DNA of 64,000 bases. Source: Heptranchias perlo (Eukaryota). The DNA lies in assembly GCF_035084215.1 (NCBI RefSeq), contig NC_090362.1:13330001-13394000 (forward strand), in the 5' to 3' direction. A program made the translations under genes and the position numbers. Of the stretch, positions 5,500 through 63,620 are shown one piece after another (positions within the stretch are counted from its first letter, which is position 1; each line of letters begins with the position of its first letter). The notes under the pieces are model-generated. The model saw only the letters and a list, made by a program, of their open reading frames with translations. It made no database searches and was not told where the DNA came from.

Positions 5500-5851
5500 A
5501 TGGCGGCCCCTGGATTAGGCGGCGCTGGGCACTGGTTTGGGTTCGGGTTTAATCGATTCGGGCAGGTTATTAACCCCGGGTCCCGGAGGGAGTGTGAAGC
5601 GGACGGGTGGATACTCGAGCCCCGCGTGGTGACTGCCTGCAGCCCGGGACCGGGCCAGGAACGGGTTGAAGCCGAGGCAGAGAGGCAGTCACCGCCTCCT
5701 AACGATGACCCGCGGGGTGGCGGCAGGTCGGGGCCTGAGGGGCTGCAATCAAATCCCAGACGTGAGGGGCCCGGCGGCAGGAGGTGTCCGGCGGAGAGTG
5801 CCCCTGTTTCTAAGATCTGTCCCTCCTGGAGTCACTCTACGTATTTGACAG
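5500..5851 (+). CDS. RCCD1: RCC1 domain-containing protein 1, exon 1
   Basis: In a CpG island; MAAPGLGGAGHWFGFGFNRFGQ...SKICPSWSHSTYLT resembles human WFGFGFCGFGQ...VSASWSYTAFVT; donor G|gtgtgt, phase 1. Confidence 0.88.
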
Positions 5852-5863
5852 GTGTGTGGTAAC

Positions 5864-6860
5864 AGGTGAATGTGTAGCCTTCGGGCCAGTGAGTGTCTCA
5901 GGTGAATGTGCACCGCTTAGGTGAGTGCGTGTCCCGGGTGAATGTGTAGCCCACAGGTGAGTGCGTGTCCCGGGTGAATGTGTAGCCCACAGGTGAGTGC
6001 GTGTCCCGGGTGAATGTGTAGCCCACAGGTGAGTGCGTGTCCCGGGTGAATGTGTAGCCCACAGGTGAGTGCGTGTCCCGGGTGAATGTGTAGCCCACAG
6101 GTGAGTGCGTGTCCCGGGTGAATGTGTAGCCCACAGGTGAGTGCGTGTCCCGGGTGAATGTGTAGCCCACAGGTGAGTGCGTGTCCCGGGTGAATGTGTA
6201 GCCCACAGGTGAGTGCGTGTCCCGGGTGAATGTGTAGCCCACAGGTGAGTGCGTGTCCCGGGTGAATGTGTAGCCCACAGGTGAGTGCGTGTCCCGGGTG
6301 AATGTGTAGCCCACAGGTGAGTGCGTGTCCCGGGTGAATGTGTAGCCCACAGGTGAGTGCGTGTCCCGGGTGAATGTGTAGCCCACAGGTGAGTGCGTGT
6401 CCCGGGTGAATGTGTAGCCCACAGGTGAGTGCGTGTCCCGGGTGAATGTGTAGCCCACAGGTGAGTGCGTGTCCCGGGTGAATGTGTAGCCCACAGGTGA
6501 GTGCGTGTCCCGGGTGAATGTGTAGCCCACAGGTGAGTGCGTGTCCCGGGTGAATGTGTAGCCCACAGGTGAGTGCGTGTCCCGGGTGAATGTGTAGCCC
6601 ACAGGTGAGTGCGTGTCCCGGGTGAATGTGTAGCCCACAGGTGAGTGCGTGTCCCGGGTGAATGTGTAGCCCACAGGTGAGTGCGTGTCCCGGGTGAATG
6701 TGTAGCCCACAGGTGAGTGCGTGTCCCGGGTGAATGTGTAGCCCACAGGTGAGTGCGTGTCTCAGATGAATGTGTAGCCCTTAAGTCAGTACATGTCTCA
6801 GGTGAGTGCGTATGTGTTTCACAGGTGAGTATGTACCCCACAGCTGAGTGTGCATCTCAG
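5864..6860 (+). repeat. 36-bp minisatellite (gtgagtgcgtgtcccgggtgaatgtgtagcccacag), 23 perfect copies at 5921-6748 plus degenerate flanks
   Basis: Directly visible: 828 bp = 23 x 36; explains the repetitive minus-strand ORFs. Confidence 0.98.
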
Positions 6861-7994
6861 GTGTAGACCTGATGGTGGCAGGGGTTAGAGATTGGTTTAA
6901 AAGTCCATTCAAATGTCTGCTTCTTTAATCAGGAAGACCAGAAAAGGCAAAAGATGGGAAAACGGCCATTTGCGCTCACTCTTACGACTCCAACTCTCCC
7001 ATTATAGCATCCACCTGTATTTTGAATTACCTTAATGCTCTTGCTGTTACAGTCTTACCCAGAGGATTATTCCAAACATCACTATTGAGTAAAAACATTT
7101 TTTTATCTGCTTTAAATATTTTTAAGTAAGCTGAACTGATATCCCCCTGATTTACTTTCATGGCTTACTTTGAAGTAATGATCTTACCATTTAATATTTT
7201 ATATATCACATTGAGGTTCTCTCTAAATTTTCTGTAGACTACAACTTCAGCTTATTTTTCCTTGTAGCTCACCCGTTTCACACTTGGGATTATTCTTATG
7301 CAGGCAAAGAAGAAGGATAACAACAGTGACTAGATTCCAAAAAGTAGTTCATTGGATTTGAACTGCGTCCTGAAGATGTGAAAAGGCACTATATAAGTTA
7401 GCCGATCTTATCCAGGGTAGAAGTTGGGAGCTACAATTAGCCACAGCGTCCCTGGGCTAGGGAGGGACAGATCGGAGAAGGATTCTACTGTCTGCTGGAA
7501 AGTACATGTGTGTTCCTTTCATGTAGGAATAGGATTGGACTATGACTTAATGATCCCCATGGGTGAATGGGAACAGGAATAGGCCATTCAGCTTCTTAAG
7601 CCTGTTCTGCCATGCAATTAGATCAAAGCAAGTCAACTCCATTCACCTGCCTTTGTTCCATATCGCTTGGCCTAACAAAATCTATCAATCTCAGTCTTAA
7701 AATAGTTTGCCAATGCTTGCTGTTTCATACATCATAGAAATTGCAGCACAGGAGACAATTTGGCCCATTGCACCTGTGCTGGAAAGAACATTGCTTCTAT
7801 CAAGATGAAATATAGCCCCTCGCACGAAGTACTGGAGTGATGCTGGGACCAGTACCTTCAGGAGAGGAAAATAATAAAGGTTTTCAGATCTGTATCACTG
7901 TGTACCTTTATGGTTCATTCTATCCTTTTACACATCAAAATAAACCCCACCGAGCAAGTTCCATATCATTAACTTTGTTTCAGTTTTGTTCCAG

Positions 7995-8219: not shown

Positions 8220-10419
8220 GTATAGTAAATTAGAATGCAACACAGTCTTCTTCACCCCTTCCCTAATTCTACTGCTTTTATCCGTTTGCTTTTTTTTCCC
8301 CTCACATTTTTTTCCCTCTCAGGCTATTGATTCCTTGCTGGGTATGTTTGGGTGCCAGTAGCTTCCAGTGCTTACCCATGTGACACAGTGTCAGTTGGGG
8401 GCAAAGATTGCAACTGAGCCTGATCACTGCCCTTGTCCCACATCTACATGTGCCCTTCTAGTTATGGCAACTGGATTTGGAGCAGGTACCCTGACCTTTT
8501 TTAAAACATGCTTTCTCCTTGCCTCCTGGTACAGGAACTATAATTAAAATCAATTGTAGTACCCCAACTAGCTGAGACCAGCTCAGTCAGCCAGACTGGG
8601 GATTGAACTTAAGTCTTCGAGTCTGTGTAGCTGAGCTGCTAATTGCCTTGACCAGCTGAGCTAATGGAGCCTTGCAGCCACAGCTTCTTGCCTCTTACCT
8701 CACTTCAACTAAGCATCTTGGGCCTTCATCTAAGTTTCTTGAAATAAAAGTATAAACATTTTGTTAGTCTGGTTGGAGAGACTGAGGTACGATGATGGTT
8801 ATTGCAATTGGCTTCATTGATGATGCTGGTTCACAAATTCATATACCCTCACATTTATTTCACTGAAGTAATGGACTTCTGTTAAAGCTTACACCACTGG
8901 TCCTTGCAATTTGGCCCCTTCCACTTTGGCCCTCAGAAGACTCGCTGCTCCTTATGTCTTTTGGCCTCCATTCATGACCTCTTAAATTTTGTTGTGCTGA
9001 CCGAGCTTAGGATTAAACGTTGTTACTTCACCAACAAAAAGAGGCAGAGTTGTCCCAACTTCTGTACAGTGAATGAAGCACCCTATTAATGTAGGACTAG
9101 GTAATAGAGTTGTTGATTTTGTTCTTTCTATTCCTGCGAGGAGGTCCCTGACCTCCAGAATGACGTAACTGAAATCAGGATCTGACCAATTGGCAAATCA
9201 CAGGACCCATACCCCATCGTTTGTATAAAGCATTTGATGGAGCCGCTCTCAAGCAATACGTTGGTTAGGTTTGTGACCCTTGGCACTAAGTTAGTGAATA
9301 ACATCGCCCTACAACAATTTTTACACCTTCTGTACTAACTGACTTGTTTATTGAGTACTTGTAACTAAAAATCAATGATAAATGAATGCTTTCTGTCTAA
9401 ATTAGTCATATTCATAGGTATAGTGCGCATCGGGACACTAGGATAAGCAGTTAATTTATTCAGAGCTGATGCAGTATGGCTTGTATATGTTCCTGTCATA
9501 ACTCCTGTAGCTGTAAACTGGGTACATTGTACAGAGGCCAACAGAAAAACGAACATTTGAGAACAAAATTTAAGCTATATTTGTGATGGTATTGCCTATC
9601 ATGTCATAGTACACCAGCTGTATAAATATGCGCTATAATCAACATGATTCTCCTGTACAAATGTCCTAATACCCCATACAATTCATACTGCAGTATTAGT
9701 CTTTATGTAGTGAGTGAACACAGGAAATTAAATGGCAGCTTTTATGTAGCGGAGCAATGAGTGGTGATTTGTACCTACCCCACTGTAAATCATATTAGAT
9801 TAGTTAATACTCCCCTCTGATTACACAAGGTGTAGGACAGATTTATGCATCAACACTAATTTATACATTTAAAAGAAAATTAAAGGCTTGCTGGGTAAAT
9901 GCATGGCTACGGCTAACGCCAAGTGATATAGCCCAGGTCTTGGGTTCAGTCCCTGATCTATGCCAAGGTGGTGGGTTGCTACACTTAGCCTCGCTGTCCC
10001 TAGATTAGGAAACAGGAGTAAAAACAGAAAATGCTGGAAAAATGTAGCTGGTCTGTCAGCATCTGTAAAGAGAAGAAAAGTTCACTTGATATGAAAGGCC
10101 CACCCCCCAAAACCTTAACTTTGTCTTACAGATGCTAACAGACCTGTGATGCATTTTCAGTCTTATTATGTGTTGAGAGTAGGAATCATTGGATATTGAT
10201 CGACAGTGGGAATGTAGGCCAATTTACAGCTGTCTAGCCCAGGGTCACTAAGGCCATCGGTAAAGCCTGTCGATTGTCAAGGTGAATTTGTTAACTCAGC
10301 ACAGACCGTGGATCAAACCTTGGGTCCTCTGCTCTATATGGATCAATACTGCATTGTGTGATTGCTTTCATTACTAGGGAATGGCGGAGGGGAAACTCAT
10401 ACTTTTTCCCCCCTCACAG

Positions 10420-16715: not shown

Positions 16716-17868
16716 GTACGTGACAGTAGGCACTGAGTAATGGTTATGTTTTTCTCTAGAGAATGGCAAATTGGTCTGTGTGGTGAAACTGATTTTTTTT
16801 TTGATAGTTTTGCAATGTGTAACCACTGATGTAAAATTAGTCACTTTAATGTTGTGTTAATGCAAGATTTTAACATTCTTAATGAGAGACATTAGAAATG
16901 AAAGGTCTTGGCTGTTTGTAGAGCTGAGATTTTAGATTGTGAATGGTATCGGTGGACTTTGCTCTCTTTAAGCCCCCTCCCACCCCAAATCACACAAGTG
17001 TTCCTCAGTAGACAAGGAAAAGAGTCTATCTGAATAACATGTCCATGGACACTATTACTACCATCCCTTGGTTAATTGGCTAGAAAGAGTGCTTGAGCAA
17101 TGAAGGGAGAGGCCCCTCTCGAGTCAGTTTCCCTTGTTCCCTTCCAAACTGTCCAGATGGGATGGTGAGCTGTGGATGTCAAGGATGCCTGATGTCATTA
17201 CAGATTGGGATTCGGGTCTCCTAGTGAGAGTGCAGTGCTGTAACACGTTTACCAGATTATAGATTTGAAGATAAAGATGATTTAAGTTTCACACACCTTC
17301 ATTATGAGCAATCTAGCCCAAAAAGAGAGAACTGAAAATTTGAAATGAAAACAGGAGGTGCTGGAAATACACAGCAGGTCTATCAGCTTCTGAAAATAAA
17401 AAAACCTGATTAATGTTTGAAGTGCAGATTCTTACTCGAAATATTAATCTATCTTCAGATGCTGATGTGCTGTGTATTTCTGACACTCTTGTGTCTGTTG
17501 TGAACAACAGTAGCAATTTCAGTAAAGGTACTGGGTCTTGTTGGTTGAGTACACTGTCTAGAAATTTGTACAGCATAAATCAGACACAATTAGTCTGATT
17601 CTTAAACTAGAAATCAATTTTTTTCATTCATGATGTGGAGGCATTAGTTATTGAGATTATTAAGGTTTTTGATGTTTTTCGTCACTAGCAAACCTCACAA
17701 CTTGAGCTCGCATCCATCCTTCTATCCAGTTGTGGACTTGGCAAAAAGAGGCCTAATCTTCACATTTTTTATATATTTAGATTTTGACAGGAGCTTTCAC
17801 TGACAAGAAGTTCAATTAAGTAGCTTCAGTCTTGACTATTAAATCCTGTCATTTTTCCTCTTTTTCAG

Positions 17869-38609: not shown

Positions 38610-38812
38610 GAAGGAAACACTCAACAGGTCAGGCAGCATCAGTGGAGAGAGGAAGATAGGGTTAATATTTCAGGTGAATGACCATTCTCCAGACCTGAAT
38701 CATTAACCAGCCTTCTTCCCCTCTCGACAGATGCTGCCTGACCTGCTGAGTGTTTTCAGTATTTTCTGTTTTTATTTCAGATTTCCAGTATCTGCAGTAT
38801 TTTGCTTCTTGT
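38610..38812. mobile_element. Penelope-type short element, degenerate head-to-head hairpin
   Basis: caggtcaggcagcatc...gatgctgcctgacctg inverted arms; same family as 44685-44856. Confidence 0.65.
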
Positions 38813-41522: not shown

Positions 41523-42845
41523 TCAATCCTCTAGAAGCCCAGTTATTTCTGATCTAAGTTGGGAGAGTTCCTCTTCAGAGAGTAAGTGCTTGCGGATTAT
41601 TTCCAGCGCCTTCCCCTCAGTCATCTCGCTGTAATGGTGGGGGGTTTTGATGGGCAAGTGTCCCGCCAGCTCACACAGAGCCACGTTAAATGCCGACTCC
41701 TCCTTGACGCCGAAGCAGGATCTCCGCGGCCAGAGTATGAGCCGAACCCCGTCCCGCGATCCCGGGTCTGCAACTCGGCCCCCCAGCGGGCAACCCCGAG
41801 TCAGGAACAGGTTGTGAGCCAGCGATCGGCCCAGGAAGAAGTCGGTGATTCGGTGAAGCGCGGCCGCGGTCTGCGGGATGTCGGTCCCGTCCGTGTACAG
41901 GACCAGCCCTCGAGTGGGGTGTCCGGACAGAAGGTGAACTCGGTGCAGCGGCTTTGGCCGGGGCCGGGACCGGGACCGGGGCGGCTCGCGTTCCCCTTCA
42001 GCCCGCTGGAGCCCAGGTTTGTCCAGTCCTGGCCCCGGCTGATCCCGGGTTGTCCCAGTCCAGCCCGCTCCTACATCCAGCTCGGGCTCGGCTCTATTAA
42101 AACCCGTGCCCGGGGCCAGAGGCTCGGTCGGGGCCGATTCCACCTCTAACTCGTGTCCCAAATAATAGCCGTGCAGGTGCAGGTGATTGACGGAGGCGAA
42201 GGCCCCGAGACTGTTAAACCCCATTCGGAAGCCCGGGTCCGAGCTCAGGAAGACCAGCTCCAGGGCCTGGAGCAGCGAGTCCCCGGTTAAAACCTGCGGC
42301 AGAGCCCGAGCCGGGTCGGGGAGCAGCAGAACGTGGCCGTACTCCAGGGGGCTCACGTTGATGATCAGCAAGGCACCCCCTTGCCCCGTAAGTCTGTCCC
42401 CGGGACAGGCGGCGCCTCCCCGGCGGAGGGCGAAGAGGATCTCCCGGGGCCGGATCTTGCCGAAGTTGAACTGATTGGGGTCGAAGGGCTGCCGGAGGCT
42501 GAGGATCTCCTGCGGCCTCCGCCGCTCCGTTCCCCGGCTGACGTTCAGCTGGGCCACAAAGCGGCGCGGCCCCGGCAGCACCCGGCTGAGCAGCTCCGGC
42601 CCCCGCAGGGCGTAGCGGAAGCAGCCCCGGGACATCCGATCGGCCCAGGCCGAGCGGAGCGCCGCATCGAAGCGGCAGCGGGTTCCCGGGCGGCCCCACC
42701 GGACCCCGCTCTTAAAGAAATCACCCTCCGAGTACGCGAACACCTCGGCCTCCGTCCACGGTCTGGCCTGCTCCGGCTCCCCGTTTACCGCGGCTCCATC
42801 CGCCGGCTTCAGCTCAGCGATTCCCGCCTCACTGGGCGCCGCCAT
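41523..42845 (-). CDS. GDPGP1: GDP-D-glucose phosphorylase 1 (VTC2-like HIT family), single coding exon, 440 aa
   Basis: RFVAQLN..RG.ERRRPQEI...FDPNQFNF.KI; INVSPLEYGHVLL; GFNSLGAFASVNHLHLH (HIT motif); FNVALCELAGHLP. Confidence 0.96.
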   Translation of the reverse strand: MAAPSEAGIAELKPADGAAVNGEPEQARPWTEAEVFAYSEGDFFKSGVRWGRPGTRCRFDAALRSAWADRMSRGCFRYALRGPELLSRVLPGPRRFVAQLNVSRGTERRRPQEILSLRQPFDPNQFNFGKIRPREILFALRRGGAACPGDRLTGQGGALLIINVSPLEYGHVLLLPDPARALPQVLTGDSLLQALELVFLSSDPGFRMGFNSLGAFASVNHLHLHGYYLGHELEVESAPTEPLAPGTGFNRAEPELDVGAGWTGTTRDQPGPGLDKPGLQRAEGEREPPRSRSRPRPKPLHRVHLLSGHPTRGLVLYTDGTDIPQTAAALHRITDFFLGRSLAHNLFLTRGCPLGGRVADPGSRDGVRLILWPRRSCFGVKEESAFNVALCELAGHLPIKTPHHYSEMTEGKALEIIRKHLLSEEELSQLRSEITGLLED

Positions 42846-43540
42846 TTTATGGTGACGTCACCAGCCGCGCCGAGGCCCCCGTTTCCACGGCTTCCAAAGG
42901 GAGCTGTCCCCCCCCCGCCGCCGCCGCCGCCTGTATGCACAGCCCAGCAGCTATTCGAAGATTAAAGAATAGACAAGCAATTTGATTCCTTTTACACGGA
43001 ATAATAATTAATTTTCCAACGACATCCCTGCATCAGCTTTTATTTTAGAGTAAATTAGAAAGCCGCTCAGAAATAAGATTGCACTAGCCAATCGAATTGC
43101 GATTCTGTCAGCCTATCAGAGCTTTTGTAATTTTATTTTAACCAATGAACATCGACCTACTGATTTCCAGCCAATAATCGATGGTTGAGTGTCACTACAC
43201 AACCAATCAGCGTTATGCAACGCAGGCCACCAATGAAAAAGCGAGGCTCCGCGGACCAATCAGAACTAGCATTTGGTTGCCATGACTGCGAGGCGGGCAG
43301 AGCGCGGCCTGACAGGGCGGCGGGCGCCAGGTGAGTGAGGAAAGCGGAGAAGGGGGAGTTCGGGCGCGAAATAAAATAAATAATGAAATAGCCGCACCGC
43401 CGAAAGTTTACATCGGGACGCGGTCAGCACGGAGTGGGTTGAAAGCCACTCGGAGCCCCAACGTTTCCCACCTGTTGTCGGCGCTTCAGTACCATAGCAA
43501 CGCGCCGCGGCAACGGGCCTTAGCAACGGGCAACTAAACT
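42846..43540. promoter_or_regulatory. Divergent GDPGP1/TTLL13 promoter: CRE, six CCAAT boxes, RFX half-sites, non-coding first exon donor at 43330
   Basis: TGACGTCA 42853-42860; CCAAT at 43088, 43142, 43171, 43203, 43230, 43256; GTTGCCATG ~43277; CAG|GTGAGT 43330; RGCAAC x4 at 43494-43534. Confidence 0.7.
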
Positions 43541-43669
43541 TGAGCAAACTTTTGCACAGTAAACAAGCTGCAGGCTTTGATCCAAGATAAAACCTTTAGT
43601 TAACTTGGGGTCACCAGATTAACGGTTTAATTTTAGCAAACTCAAGATGGCAAATGCATTGTACTGGGT

Positions 43670-44420
43670 TTTAAATATTCAATGTGAGGTGGTGCATTTT
43701 GGTAAAAGGAATAAGGAGACCACCTATTCCTTGGAAAGTAAGAGTCTAAATGGGGTAGAGGAGCAAAGCTAGGGCTACAGATTCACAACGTAAGTTAACA
43801 AGGCCATAAAAATGCAAACAAAGCATTGGGGTTCATTTCTAGAGGGATAGAATTGAAAAGCAGAGAATTATGTTAAACTTGTATCGTACCTTGCTTAGAC
43901 CACACTTGGAGCACTGTGCACAGTTCTGGTCTCCATATTACAAAAAGGATATAGAGGTACTGGAGAAAGTGCAAACAAAATACTGGAACTGAGAGGTTAT
44001 AACTATCAGGAAAAACTGAACAGGCTGGGGATGTTTTCTCTAGAAAAGAGAAGGCTAAGGGGTGACCTAATGGAGGTCTTTAAAATTATGAAGGGGTTTG
44101 ATGGGGTAGACGTGGAGAAGATGTTTCAATTTCCACTTGTGGAGGAGTCCAAAACTAGGGGCCATTAATATAAGACAGTCACTAATAAATCCAATCAGGA
44201 GAAACTTCTTTACCCACAGAGTGGTGAGAATGTAGAACTTGCTACCACATGGAGTAGTTGAGGCGAATAGCATCGATGCCTTTAAGGTGGAGTTTAAAAA
44301 GAGAAAGCAATAGAAGGGTATGCAGATAAGGTTAGGTGAAATAGGATGGGAGGAGGCTTGTGGTGGAGCATAAGCACAGACATTGGCCAATTGGCTTGTT
44401 TCTGCGCTGTAAATTCTATG
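43670..44420 (+). mobile_element. CR1 LINE 3' fragment
   Basis: CEVVHFG; LYRTLLRPHLEHCAQFWSPYYKKDI; tail aattctatg. Confidence 0.88.
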
Positions 44421-44684
44421 TAAAAAAAACTTTTAAAATTCCTGTGTTTAAATTTTTGTACGTTTCTGCCTTGCTCTCCTGAAGGCTGGAATACCTTTTT
44501 CCTGTGCATCCTTCATTACCACCCCAAATGGCCATTCTTCACGTCTGACACCAGTGAATGTGGGCAGGCTATTCCACTGTGGGCGGCATCACAACAATCC
44601 CAGATCTTGTCCTCACCCGACTTCAGGATGTTTGACCAAGCTTTTGGTCACTTGTCATAATGTCTTCTCCTTTGGCTGGTCGTC

Positions 44685-44856
44685 ATCTGTGGAGAGTTAA
44701 CGTTTCAGGTCGATGACCTTCAGAGTTCTGACGAAAGGTCATCGACCTGAAACGTTAACTCTGTTTCTCTCTCCACAGATGCTGCCTGACCTGCTGAGTA
44801 TTTCTAGCACTTTTTGTTTTTTTTTCAGATTTCCAGCATCTGCAGTATTTTGCTTT
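44685..44856 (+). mobile_element. Penelope-like short element with perfect 28-bp inverted repeat
   Basis: Arms 44693-44720 and 44735-44762 are exact reverse complements; body ctccacagatgctgcctgacctgctgagtattt. Confidence 0.75.
44721..44763 (+). ncRNA. Minimal type I hammerhead ribozyme motif (Penelope-associated type)
   Basis: cagagtt-CTGACGA-a-aggtc(atc)gacct-GAAA-cgtt-aactctg: helix I 7 bp, helix II 5 bp, palindromic ACGT in place of helix III. Confidence 0.65.
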
Positions 44857-46670
44857 AGGATTTTTTTAATAGTTAGAACGGAAATAAAACACGAATTATT
44901 GATGGAATGGTATATAACCCACTGAAAAGAAAAACGGGAGATAGATGGCTGAGATCAATGGAAAGAAGCATGGATGAAATTAAAAGACATCAAGTAGTTA
45001 ATAGCTCAGGTATTTAGAGGTGGTCGAAGGGAGAGGTAAGAAGATGGGAGACATCAAAAACACAGATAGCCTGCAAGACACGGTGCTGAAAACAAGCACA
45101 AAAGTAGGTAGGTAACAGGGGCACAAACTGTCCCACCTGCACTCATAAAGGATCTCCACCGCAAGTGTAAACCTGCTACTCCTCCCCTGGCCGCTGACAG
45201 ACCCAACTCATGTCATTGGCACCCTGGCTGTAAACAAATGGCTGAGGTCCAAAGTCAGAGAGCTGACCTGAAGTGTGTAGGAGAGAGATAAGGTGCTGTG
45301 CCACATGTATTTTGTACAGATGCCTCCAGACGTAACAGCACCCACAATAGCATCAATGAGCATGGTTGTTTTCAAGTTGTTCTGGCTGCTGTGCAAACAT
45401 CACAATATAAATTCAATTAAGGAAAAAAACAACACTACGAGTGTTGGAAATCTGAAAGAAAATGCTCCAAATCTGTCAAACAACTGAAAAGGGAAACGAC
45501 AGGTTAATACTTCAGGCCAAGGGGAGAGACCCTTCATCAGAACTGCAAAAGGTAGGTGAGCCCCTTTATGGGATCGATAAGAACATAGGTTAAGTGGGAT
45601 GCAGAGCTGGTACTGCTCCATAGAAGCGGTTCAGCATTTTAAGTGTGCTACAAGTTGTTACCATAATAAGACTATAAAAGCCTTAGTTAGCTAGTATCAA
45701 CAGTGAAAGGACTATTGAACATTGCATTGAGAGCCCATGGCATTGGTTTCTGTAATGTTATTTTTCCCATGTGGTACATTTCCATGGATGTCAATTACCC
45801 TCCGGTAACTTGCCCACGTGATGATTCTTCATGTGTGAGCCTAGGCAGGCTAGTCAATCACATAGGGCACCATAGAAAACCTAATGCTGCCCTTCACCCA
45901 TCGTCCAAATGTACACTTTCAATCAGGAGTCACTGGATATCAATTACGAGTAGGAACTCTGGCTGCTTTGATTTTTTTTCTACCCTCCCTAGCCCAGCGA
46001 TGCTGAATCCAAGTGTCACAACCTAACTATTGCCCCACCTGAGTTCAGTTATCTCAGCTCACACCAAGGATTAAACCTGTGATTCAGATCCACACCAGCA
46101 AGTGGATTCACCCATTGAGCCATTGGGGATGTTTATCAAAATACTACAATGAGAATTTGTTTATCGCAGCGTATCTATAGTACACTGTGTTATTGCAGTC
46201 GCTTTACAGCAAGCTTTTCAGTAGTCTGTGACATTACATCACCTCACTTTGGGCATTGAGCTGTTTTCCAAAGCAGTTGCTGTGATACTGCAGTAAATAA
46301 AGCTATATCCCCAGTAAGTGCTGATGTGATAGAAGACTCTGTCTGACATGGGCTATTCATTCTTGAAATATCAAAAAGAATCTGTGCCTATTGAAAAGTG
46401 CCCACATATAGATGCCAGCTGAGGACAAGATAGAGCTCAGCTGGAATTTCTCCACCCGGCCCAAATGGCCAGTTGACATTCACTGTCTCCTCATGGGTCA
46501 GGTACCAGATAGCTGCTGTATCTCAGCTGGATTTGAGCCAAGATCGCAGAGGTGAAAGATCTAACCTACTGTGCCACCCAGTCCCCACCTAGGTTATTTC
46601 TGTTGTTGGTCAGTCTGAGACTGAGGATGTTTTTGTCAGTCCCTTTCACAAAGTCTCTACATCTCACAGA

Positions 46671-46975
46671 ATGAATGCTTCCGGAGGCATGAGTGACTCC
46701 GAGGAAGAGTCAGCTGAAGAAGAAGCAGAGAATGAGGAAGAGAGTCCAATTGAGGACTCGGAGGACGACACTGAGCCAGTTCAGAAAAAAGCCAGTGTGC
46801 TAAGAGGGACTATAACAACGAGAGAGTTGGTGAGGCACATCAAACATCGTAAACAGGTGGGAGAAGAAAAGGAACTTCACAAACAAGAACAGATAATATC
46901 CAACCAGAACACTGAAGGAAAAGACCCTGCCATGAAAGAAGAGACACAAAAGAAGAAAAAGAAGAGGAAACGCAG
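46671..46975 (+). CDS. TTLL13: Tubulin polyglutamylase TTLL13 (TTLL6 paralog), first coding exon
   Basis: cacag|A ATG; acidic N-terminus then KKKKKRKRR; donor AG|gtataa, phase 2. Confidence 0.8.
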
Positions 46976-47040
46976 GTATAACCGGGACTGATCTTTTCAT
47001 GGTCTTTCACATTTTTACCACCACTTTCACAATATTTTCT

Positions 47041-47168
47041 ACTGACCGGTGCACCGCAGGCTCCTCCCTCACACTGACCGGTGCACCGCAGGCTCCTCCC
47101 TCACACTGACCGGTGCACCGCAGGCTCCTCCCTCACACTGACCGGTGCACCGCAGGCTCCTCCCTCAC
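47041..47168 (+). repeat. 32-bp tandem repeat x4 (actgaccggtgcaccgcaggctcctccctcac)
   Basis: Exact copies start at 47041, 47073, 47105 and 47137. Confidence 0.97.
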
Positions 47169-48606
47169 ATTAATCAATATTAACCTGGATCGTATGAATT
47201 CTGCTCCCATATCTGGGACGACTCTTCTAACAGATTTCCCACATTCATAGACAAGATGTAAGGAAAACTTGTTGCCTTGTAGTTAACCCTTCCCTCAGAC
47301 CCTTCCCTCAGCTCTAGCCTCCCATTTCACATTGTCGCAACTTTTATTGTTTTATTTTCTCATTACTACTATGTTCATTGCTTCTCTGAACTTTCCTCTC
47401 TTAGTCCTTCTAAGGCCAAATAACACCATTCAACACATTCTTCCTCCTCCCTATATCCTCTTTGTGTTGAAATTAAGACTGCACACTTTCACACAACCTC
47501 AAAGTTGTGGACCTCCTTACCTCTTGCGGCCTTCCTTTGCTCCTACATCTTTTGTGTTGAAAATCACAATGGGGCTGCATGTCCTTGGCTATGTGGGCGG
47601 ACTCCTGCCATAACTCCTGCAGGAGTCCCACGGAGCGGCTCAGAAAATGGCCAGAATCCAGCTCCCCAACTGAGCTGGGATATCCTGCTCAGCTCTCTGA
47701 GGGCTGGAGCCTCTGGCTGGCCTCTAGAAGGCCCCGGGCACTCCCTAGGGGATGCCCCATACGCTGGGCGTTCTTGTTCCTTCTTCTAATATGGAGTCTG
47801 GTACACCATGAGATGAGGCATATCCAATTCCAGAAGGGTGCAAGTGGGCCCCAGGGTTGTTTGGGGGGGGGAGGGGGAGAGGAGGGAGAGGAGGGGGGAG
47901 AGAGGGGGAGAGGGGGAGGGGTCAGGCCAGGATTCCCAAAGATAATGGAAATCTTTTTGAAACCAAAGCTTTGTATCAAACTCCCTTGGTAAGCGGATTG
48001 AAGGGGCCGACGATAGCAGGGAAGGACCCAGGTACCCCCCACCACCCTCTCATCCCTCTCCCCACTCTCACCACACCCCCACTCCCACCACCTCCACCCC
48101 CTCCCCCTCGGATGGTAGTCGGGACTGGCAGACACTTGAGGGGTGCCTGTAGCCACACAGAAGCTGACAGGAAGCCAGGTGCCCTCTCACTGACCCCGTA
48201 TACTCTGGCAGGGTCAGTAGCGGAGGTCACCGACAGGCACCATCCCACTGCACCTGCCAGGATCACAGCTCATGGATTATCAGTTTCAATATCTGTTCCT
48301 TCTTGGTATCTAAAAAGAGGAATTGTTAAAATCTTTTAGGTGGAGGGAGACTCTTCATCAGGGCTGACAGATGTACTGCGTATTTCCACAGTTCTATTTC
48401 ATGTTTCCACTTTTTCTTTTGTTACCTAACAATGATTTATCGTGACTCCTCTACACACTGAATACTATCTTTAACTGTTGTGCTATGAAATGGCAATGCG
48501 GAGCACAGCCCAGTCATTTCCCACATGGAAATTTATAACATCTGTCTATTTGATTAAGATTAGCAAACTGCTCTGCCCTTTTTTCTCAGCCTGTTCTTTC
48601 TTGCAG

Positions 48607-63219: not shown

Positions 63220-63583
63220 TTCAAATGCAAGTGCTCTGTGCCCTTGTCAATAAAGGTGGTTGCAAAAAGAATACAACGAGTTACTAATTCTGTTTTAATT
63301 GTGCTTCACATTTATCAAAACTTCAGAGAAAATTTTTAAAAAACAGGCAGGACACTGTAATGGGAGGGTTTGGATACTCTGGTGAAATATGGTTTCAGAA
63401 TGTATTTTTGTGATCTGATTTAATCGGAGAGGCCCCAAGTGAACTGCAGGATCTCAGGGAGGCTGCCTGCACTGGCAGCCTGTGCGGCCTTCCATAAGAG
63501 AGAGCAGCACCTTAGAACTAAAGACAGAAAATGCTAAACACACACAGCAGGTCAGGCGGCATCTGTGGAGAGAGAAAAACAGA

Positions 63584-63620
63584 GTTAACGTTTCAGGTCG
63601 ATGACCTTTCATCAGAACCC
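63584..63620 (-). ncRNA. Second minimal hammerhead motif, at the end of a Penelope-type element (63520-63620)
   Basis: Reverse complement gggtt-CTGATGA-a-aggtc(atc)gacct-GAAA-cgtt-aactc. Confidence 0.6.

Follow-up and report, generated by a model that had tools for sequence, protein, structure and literature searches.

Is the ribozyme-like sequence at 44721-44763 of the window (the whole stretch of 64,000 nucleotides of Heptranchias perlo DNA that was analysed) a working part of the gene in which it appears to lie, or a remnant left by a mobile element? A sequence-only reading had described it as a Penelope-type hammerhead of a non-autonomous, retrozyme-like family, masked by its own inverted copy and able to act as a switch inside the TTLL13 pre-mRNA. 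We find that the feature is almost certainly a short non-coding head-to-head insertion, consisting of that end of an abundant Penelope-like element (PLE) which carries the hammerhead, Table 1. The identity of the family and the inertness of this copy are, taken jointly, highly probable. The locus is one of thousands of scars of a known type and has little importance in itself; a pile-up of 5' ends across the family is worth keeping. Statements on PMC4209133, PMC8557442, PMC3846280, PMC2377424, PMC5408684 and bioRxiv 2026.07.22.740005 refer to the accessible parts of these sources.

Table 1. Features at the locus and in the neighbouring gene. In the columns: positions in the window, strand, feature, evidence.
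Positions	Strand	Feature	Evidence
43270..43330	+	Inferred non-coding first exon of TTLL6/13-type gene, CCAAT boxes, donor at 43331	Sequence alone
44631..44684	+	Fragment of another repeat, element in or beside it	Three other window copies
44685..44724	-	Head-to-head arm: inverted copy of the first ~57 nt of the element, 5'-truncated and with internal deletions, ending 2-3 nt from helix I first base	Sequence comparison
44721..44723	+	CAG supplied by the arm junction, lengthens helix I to 7 bp, query copy only	Family comparison
44724..44760	+	Minimal type I hammerhead: helix I AGUU/AACU, core CUGACGA+A, helix II AGGUC/GACCU, GAAA-CGU-U	Sequence, fold, definition in accessible part of PMC4209133; cleavage only predicted
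44724..44856	+	Direct arm: 133-nt family end segment, helix I first base to common 3' end, tail included	Identity to other copies at most 97%
44825..44856 (approximate)	+	Optional tail, bounded by the two 3' ends common in the family (~+101, ~+135)	3'-end histogram; tail concept PMC8557442 (accessible part), PMC11167929
45489..45551	+	Non-coding exon, GT..AG intron 45552-46669 to first coding exon	One contig, 1/4 runs

The hammerhead motif

The core strands, helix II and the palindromic ACGU that replaces helix III read as had been claimed, with the core CUGACGA at 44728-34 (+) followed by one extra A, a 3-nt loop closing helix II ahead of GAAA-CGU-U, and 44756 as the last base before the predicted cut. 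Both core strands, the extra base after A9, the palindromic 15.2-16.2 and helices I and II are those of a minimal PLE hammerhead. The G10.1-C11.1 pair of that class is replaced by A-U. Among the 6,837 core-intact motifs counted in the genome this pair is A-U in 5,801, G-U in 950, A-C in 78 and G-C in only 8. The 7-bp helix I of the sequence-only reading is present in the query copy and, since its outer CAG comes from the arm junction, is confined to it; the helix I of the family has 4 bp, and in 33 long copies CTTCTTCC precedes AGTT.

No Rfam hammerhead model matched at E<=10 in 43500-46000, where none of the five hits was to a hammerhead, so the Infernal check suggested earlier gave no match. 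The suggested look for covariation had different outcomes between families and within this one. Both sides change in nine of ten helix pairs across 8 copies from several families (0/500 shuffles equal), in an alignment that is mostly one family contrast and has one empty row; most of the change comes from a second family, 29% identical in protein. Inside the family no compensatory change was seen at 10.1-11.1, where G-C occurs 8 times against ~13 expected by independence, and the only common change is the pair-keeping A-to-G (950, versus 78 for the pair-breaking change). Published minimal hammerheads show no cleavage as monomers and are weak as dimers (PMC4209133), and the anole hammerhead requires protein (PMC11167929). 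The hammerhead of the present family is predicted to work only in a dimer or with the element's protein, and we propose that it serves the element's own cycle and not TTLL13.

The Penelope-like family

A DNA search of the 3.25-Gb genome gave 1,429 first-look candidates, the best copies being 97% identical. The motif is not a chance occurrence, since a 33-nt pattern has 3,337 exact matches genome-wide and its reversed control none. The core-intact motifs number at least 6,837.

The Penelope origin of the segment was likewise confirmed by its link to Penelope frames. Longer copies extend upstream into the end of a GIY-YIG open reading frame (ORF), and of 30 loci found by the GIY-YIG C-terminus, the query locus among them, 29 have the segment downstream in the same orientation. 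Loci L100-L106 hold open frames of 413-673 aa with the reverse transcriptase (RT) motifs IKPADKGG, MDVQSLYTSIP, GVAMG and YIDD. Locus L103 is a complete pLTR-ORF-pLTR unit. Its direct repeats, at 2368 and 5289, have a spacing of 2,921 bp, and a 30-codon upstream ORF lies at +55, ahead of the main ATG (+172). In three of the 30 loci (L071, L083, L094) the segment runs on into the ORF start. The Pfam matches to RVT_1 (E 0.0015-0.0027) and GIY-YIG (E 0.0029) are both below the curated cut-off, the ESM Atlas gave 0.97 to RT/HTH_animal clusters, and a PDB search with the RT fragment returned no match.

A telomerase-like RT with the DKG motif, a C-terminal GIY-YIG with CCHH (VYCIxCxxCGLLYIGET...H...H) and a partial-tandem pLTR around the ORF place the family among EN+ PLEs. 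The linker between RT and endonuclease, CERRRCNTC (CX4CxxC), fits the CX2-5CxxC of Neptune/Nematis in PMC8557442, by whose definitions the family is, as judged from its sequence, of Neptune/Nematis type. No part of the ORF is found at the query locus. Other copies in the window lie at 38614-38807, 63520-63618, 17332-17490 and 10020-10078; two of these are inverted pairs, and the one at 63615 (-) has an intact core.

Ends of the copies

We collected 156 loci using patterns located 3' of the ribozyme, of which 144 were unique and 140 could be aligned; the sample covers the first 106 Mb of one chromosome (C1) and favours little-decayed copies. In 35 of the 140 the 5' end lies between -5 and +5 relative to the start of helix I, a hazard of 0.033/nt at the peak versus ~0.002/nt over -300..-17. 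In the literature searched, with subscription papers and Repbase outside reach, we met no description of such a pile-up where the hammerhead begins. The 3' ends of the 140 copies are bimodal, at ~+101 and ~+135-140, leaving a tail of ~35 nt, and 39 copies have an adjoining inverted arm. An inverted, 5'-truncated arm together with an optional tail of 30-40 nt is a further EN+ trait.

Most of 33 long copies carry TTAAAAA or TATAAA ~30 nt above helix I, and CCAGTTC at the 5'-end peak, which we take to fit the initiator consensus. Of 100 short copies, 54 have a G just before their first base, compared with a background of 41% (p=0.006; hand count), with a split of 40/60 after T and 14/40 after G. 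At 30 loci a duplication was present in 8, the G lying inside it in 2 and belonging to 3 extra bases in 3. The excess is therefore not a clean cap signature, being partly target-derived.

As a possible signature of the cut site, seven of the 140 copies start at +30..+33. Four of the seven share an upstream junction with what appears to be another repeat, and these starts were therefore rejected as evidence of cleavage in vivo. L196, L205, L214 and L262 start at +31 after similar GC-rich sequence ending CCC(A/T), where a junction with another repeat has probably recurred.

A separate short family or a host switch

Could the short copies be a non-autonomous retrozyme- or SINE-like family of their own, 133 nt long, with its own masters and borrowing the Penelope enzyme? 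The short copies do form a discrete size class (35/140), 9 of 19 arm-free short copies are directly flanked by target-site duplications, compared with 8 of 342 mismatched controls, local tandem arrays exist elsewhere (49-nt units at L239), and pLTR-derived retrozymes have been described (bioRxiv 2026.07.22.740005). However, the distances are 0.116 between short copies, 0.106 between long ones and 0.112 between short and long, and the nearest neighbour carries the same label at a rate of 0.52, identical to the 0.52 obtained by shuffling (p=0.54; 32 short, 49 long). Out of 15 variable columns only two, both at gap edges, differ between the classes. The short copies also lack the -30 box and would therefore lack the inferred promoter. 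The query locus has one motif and no tandem, and we see neither the tandem units, each with a hammerhead, nor the non-autonomous lineage of non-LTR retrozymes. Because duplications abut part of the short copies, and short and long copies are intermixed, the short class has arisen repeatedly from the autonomous family and is not a retrozyme lineage. The non-autonomous family of the sequence-only reading had to be given up, given the ORF link, the full unit of L103 and the lack of a separate short lineage, and we regard it as highly improbable. At the query copy itself no target-site duplication was seen by eye.

Co-option of the query copy as a conformational switch, cleaving or sparing the TTLL13 pre-mRNA, is more improbable still, to the point of being negligible. 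What speaks for it is an intact core with a helix I of 7 bp, likely sense in a promoter-near intron. The perfect 28-bp inverted copy directly upstream, on which the idea was built, is there (44693-44720 / 44735-44762), and the true arm is longer, a 40-nt reverse copy over 44685-44724 that lacks 4 nt at one place and 10 nt at another. A stretch of 96 nt folds at -60.6 kcal/mol with a z-score of -12.2, and 0/200 shuffles are as stable. The hairpin reaches -51.6 kcal/mol versus -18.6 kcal/mol for the best ribozyme-compatible fold, a gap of ~33 kcal/mol, and the predicted ensemble probability of the open fold is ~5e-28. With the hairpin that far ahead, the arm is to be seen as an off-lock rather than a switch. 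As the arm is transcribed first, co-transcriptional folding should also favour the hairpin. No same-strand partner motif was found in the window, where the + strand has only this one core-intact motif and the other core-intact copy sits on the opposite strand. The hairpin's advantage and the missing same-strand partner in the window together make a host switch unlikely. The copy is moreover young, 97% identical to others, inverted arms are common in the family, and motifs of this kind are uncut as monomers (PMC4209133) or, in the anole, need protein (PMC11167929). The mirror arm is thus predicted to hold the ribozyme motif shut, and the query copy is for this reason likely inert for the host gene.

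The host gene

The gene on the + strand has a Pfam TTL domain, and its closest solved structure is TTLL6. By synteny we take it to be TTLL13 and its single-exon neighbour to be GDPGP1; the inferred first exon contains what is presumably an X-box-like motif. Four runs of presumed-RNA contigs from one sample were compared over 42500-47700; contigs of this kind cannot reveal starts or cuts, and that none was seen over the inferred first exon carries no weight against it. In one of them 45551 is spliced to 46670, the start of the first coding exon, which places the element upstream of that exon. The claimed position, sense within TTLL13 intron 1, is plausible from the CAG/GTGAGT donor below the CCAAT boxes, although the only spliced contig begins downstream of the element.

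An older antisense Penelope copy (45424-45547), which also begins at helix I, shares bases with the spliced exon, whose donor lies a few bases past the end of the copy. Head to head with the TTLL gene lies a 444-aa single-exon ORF (41523-42857, -) with no Pfam match, and the two are separated by a short promoter with several CCAAT boxes (42860-43330). Elsewhere in the window, at 5848-6863, there is a tandem repeat with a period of 36 bp and long open frames.

A candidate start site at helix I

From the pile-up of 5' ends we derive a mechanism by which the short copies may arise. The element's protein would nick AT-rich DNA, and reverse transcription would start inside the element RNA at ~+135 or ~+101, as for the anole element in vitro, whose internal starts define its tail (PMC11167929). 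If the first base of helix I is also the first of the RNA, with a TATA-like box at -30 and the initiator consensus at +1, the enzyme would therefore run off the RNA 5' end after 100-135 nt. The short cDNA could then be joined to the target, giving stubs such as the query copy, a second short copy would yield the inverted arm, and longer copies would form only through a template jump. That the stubs are run-off products of the reverse transcriptase at the RNA 5' end is likely from the position of their ends. For a start site at helix I combined with run-off of internally primed cDNA our confidence falls just short of balanced, the support being entirely DNA geometry. The same geometry recurs in the second family (29% protein identity), with TATAAA 30 nt above helix I.

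The pile-up could instead mark a 3' splice site, or a stall of the reverse transcriptase after the folded hammerhead, and not a start site, which we consider rather unlikely. The bases of helix I also make a good 3' splice site (poly-Y CAG), the intron of D. virilis Penelope ends at helix I (PMC4209133), and the rate of ends is raised on either side of the peak (0.010-0.012/nt). D. virilis Penelope also has a transcription start upstream of helix I (PMC2377424). A splice site would, however, leave a common upstream exon, and the duplication-flanked short copies have none: only three matching pairs occur among 19 flanks, none as a common junction, and three such short copies retain the C(AG) that splicing would remove. 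As to a stall, the reverse transcriptase meets the stem from its 3' side at +37, and no 5'-end peak was seen there. The canonical TATA box at equal spacing in the second family also argues against both.

Returning to the start site at helix I, a fuller model can be put forward somewhat more tentatively. Transcription would begin exactly where the hammerhead begins; the ribozyme would thus form the RNA 5' end and would remove a capped leader of 33 nt, and run-off would give a strong-stop cDNA of 100-135 nt that either ends as a stub, as at the query locus and in about a quarter of copies, or, by a template jump, rebuilds the pLTR. If this is true, the strong-stop cDNA would supply the missing mechanism of pLTR regeneration, and the ribozyme would act as a decapping gate. 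Both the regeneration of the pLTR and the role of the hammerhead in vivo are stated as open questions in PMC2377424 and PMC11167929.

Comparison with known elements

The family resembles EN+ Neptune/Nematis PLEs (PMC8557442, PMC3846280) in its RT with DKG, its C-terminal GIY-YIG with CCHH, the CX2-5CxxC linker, the partial-tandem pLTR, the 30-40-nt tail and, at part of the short copies, target-site duplications, and the inverted 5'-truncated arm is an already published feature of PLEs in the same sources. A TATA box and an initiator in the pLTR have been proposed there for Pen2a_Av. The query locus differs from these elements in having no part of the ORF, and the sharp pile-up of 5' ends at the hammerhead is a further difference as far as the searched literature goes. 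With the metazoan PLE hammerheads of Cervera and De la Pena 2014 (PMC4209133) the family shares the type I fold with no helix III, the palindromic 15.2-16.2, the extra base after A9, the short helix I and the mostly single dispersed motifs, with some opposite-strand pairs. It differs from them by A-U (or G-U) instead of the conserved G10.1-C11.1 and in having U as base 17. The accessible part of PMC4209133 names no sharks; the supplements of that paper or the data of Lunse et al. 2017 (cited in PMC6765202) may list shark motifs.

Poseidon of Anolis carolinensis (Frangieh et al. 2024, PMC11167929) is similar in its two internal RT starts that define the tail, its AT-rich targets and a hammerhead near the ORF start. 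Unlike in Poseidon, the main ATG is 172 nt downstream of helix I, with the 30-codon upstream ORF between them, and the Zn-finger of the linker points to another clade. Non-LTR retrozymes (bioRxiv 2026.07.22.740005) are likewise non-coding, hammerhead-bearing and pLTR-derived; they are defined there as tandem units each with a hammerhead, while the query locus has a single motif in an inverted layout and no lineage of its own.

A second family and satellites

The second Penelope-like family forms head-to-tail arrays of 7.8-8.2 kb near chromosome ends (L290-L294, L230-L237), at 0.93-1.02 Mb and 198.12-198.27 of 198.56 Mb on C1 and at 141.42-141.55 of 141.86 Mb on C4. It has an open frame of 744 aa with RT and GIY-YIG, both Pfam matches being above the cut-off, and an upstream frame of 754 aa with a weak GDSL/SGNH match (E 0.011). 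Neptune elements with an esterase are mentioned in PMC5408684, and the literature searched yielded no subtelomeric arrays of an EN+ element. Its hammerhead is textbook minimal, with a 7-bp helix I, G-C at 10.1-11.1 and GUC, 30 nt below TATAAA. This intact subtelomeric family is a ready test case for the start site at helix I.

The conserved repeat of L238 and related matches is dispersed and has both core strands, yet helix II cannot form and it is probably unrelated. At 0.44 Mb of C10 (L091/L107) there is a satellite of 44-46 nt derived from the hammerhead 3' half inside an inverted arm. At 32.43 Mb of C1 (L239/L240) tandem units of ~49 nt each contain the hammerhead region of the family, with 40 matches in 3 kb, and this array is a local retrozyme-like satellite in which dimers are possible.
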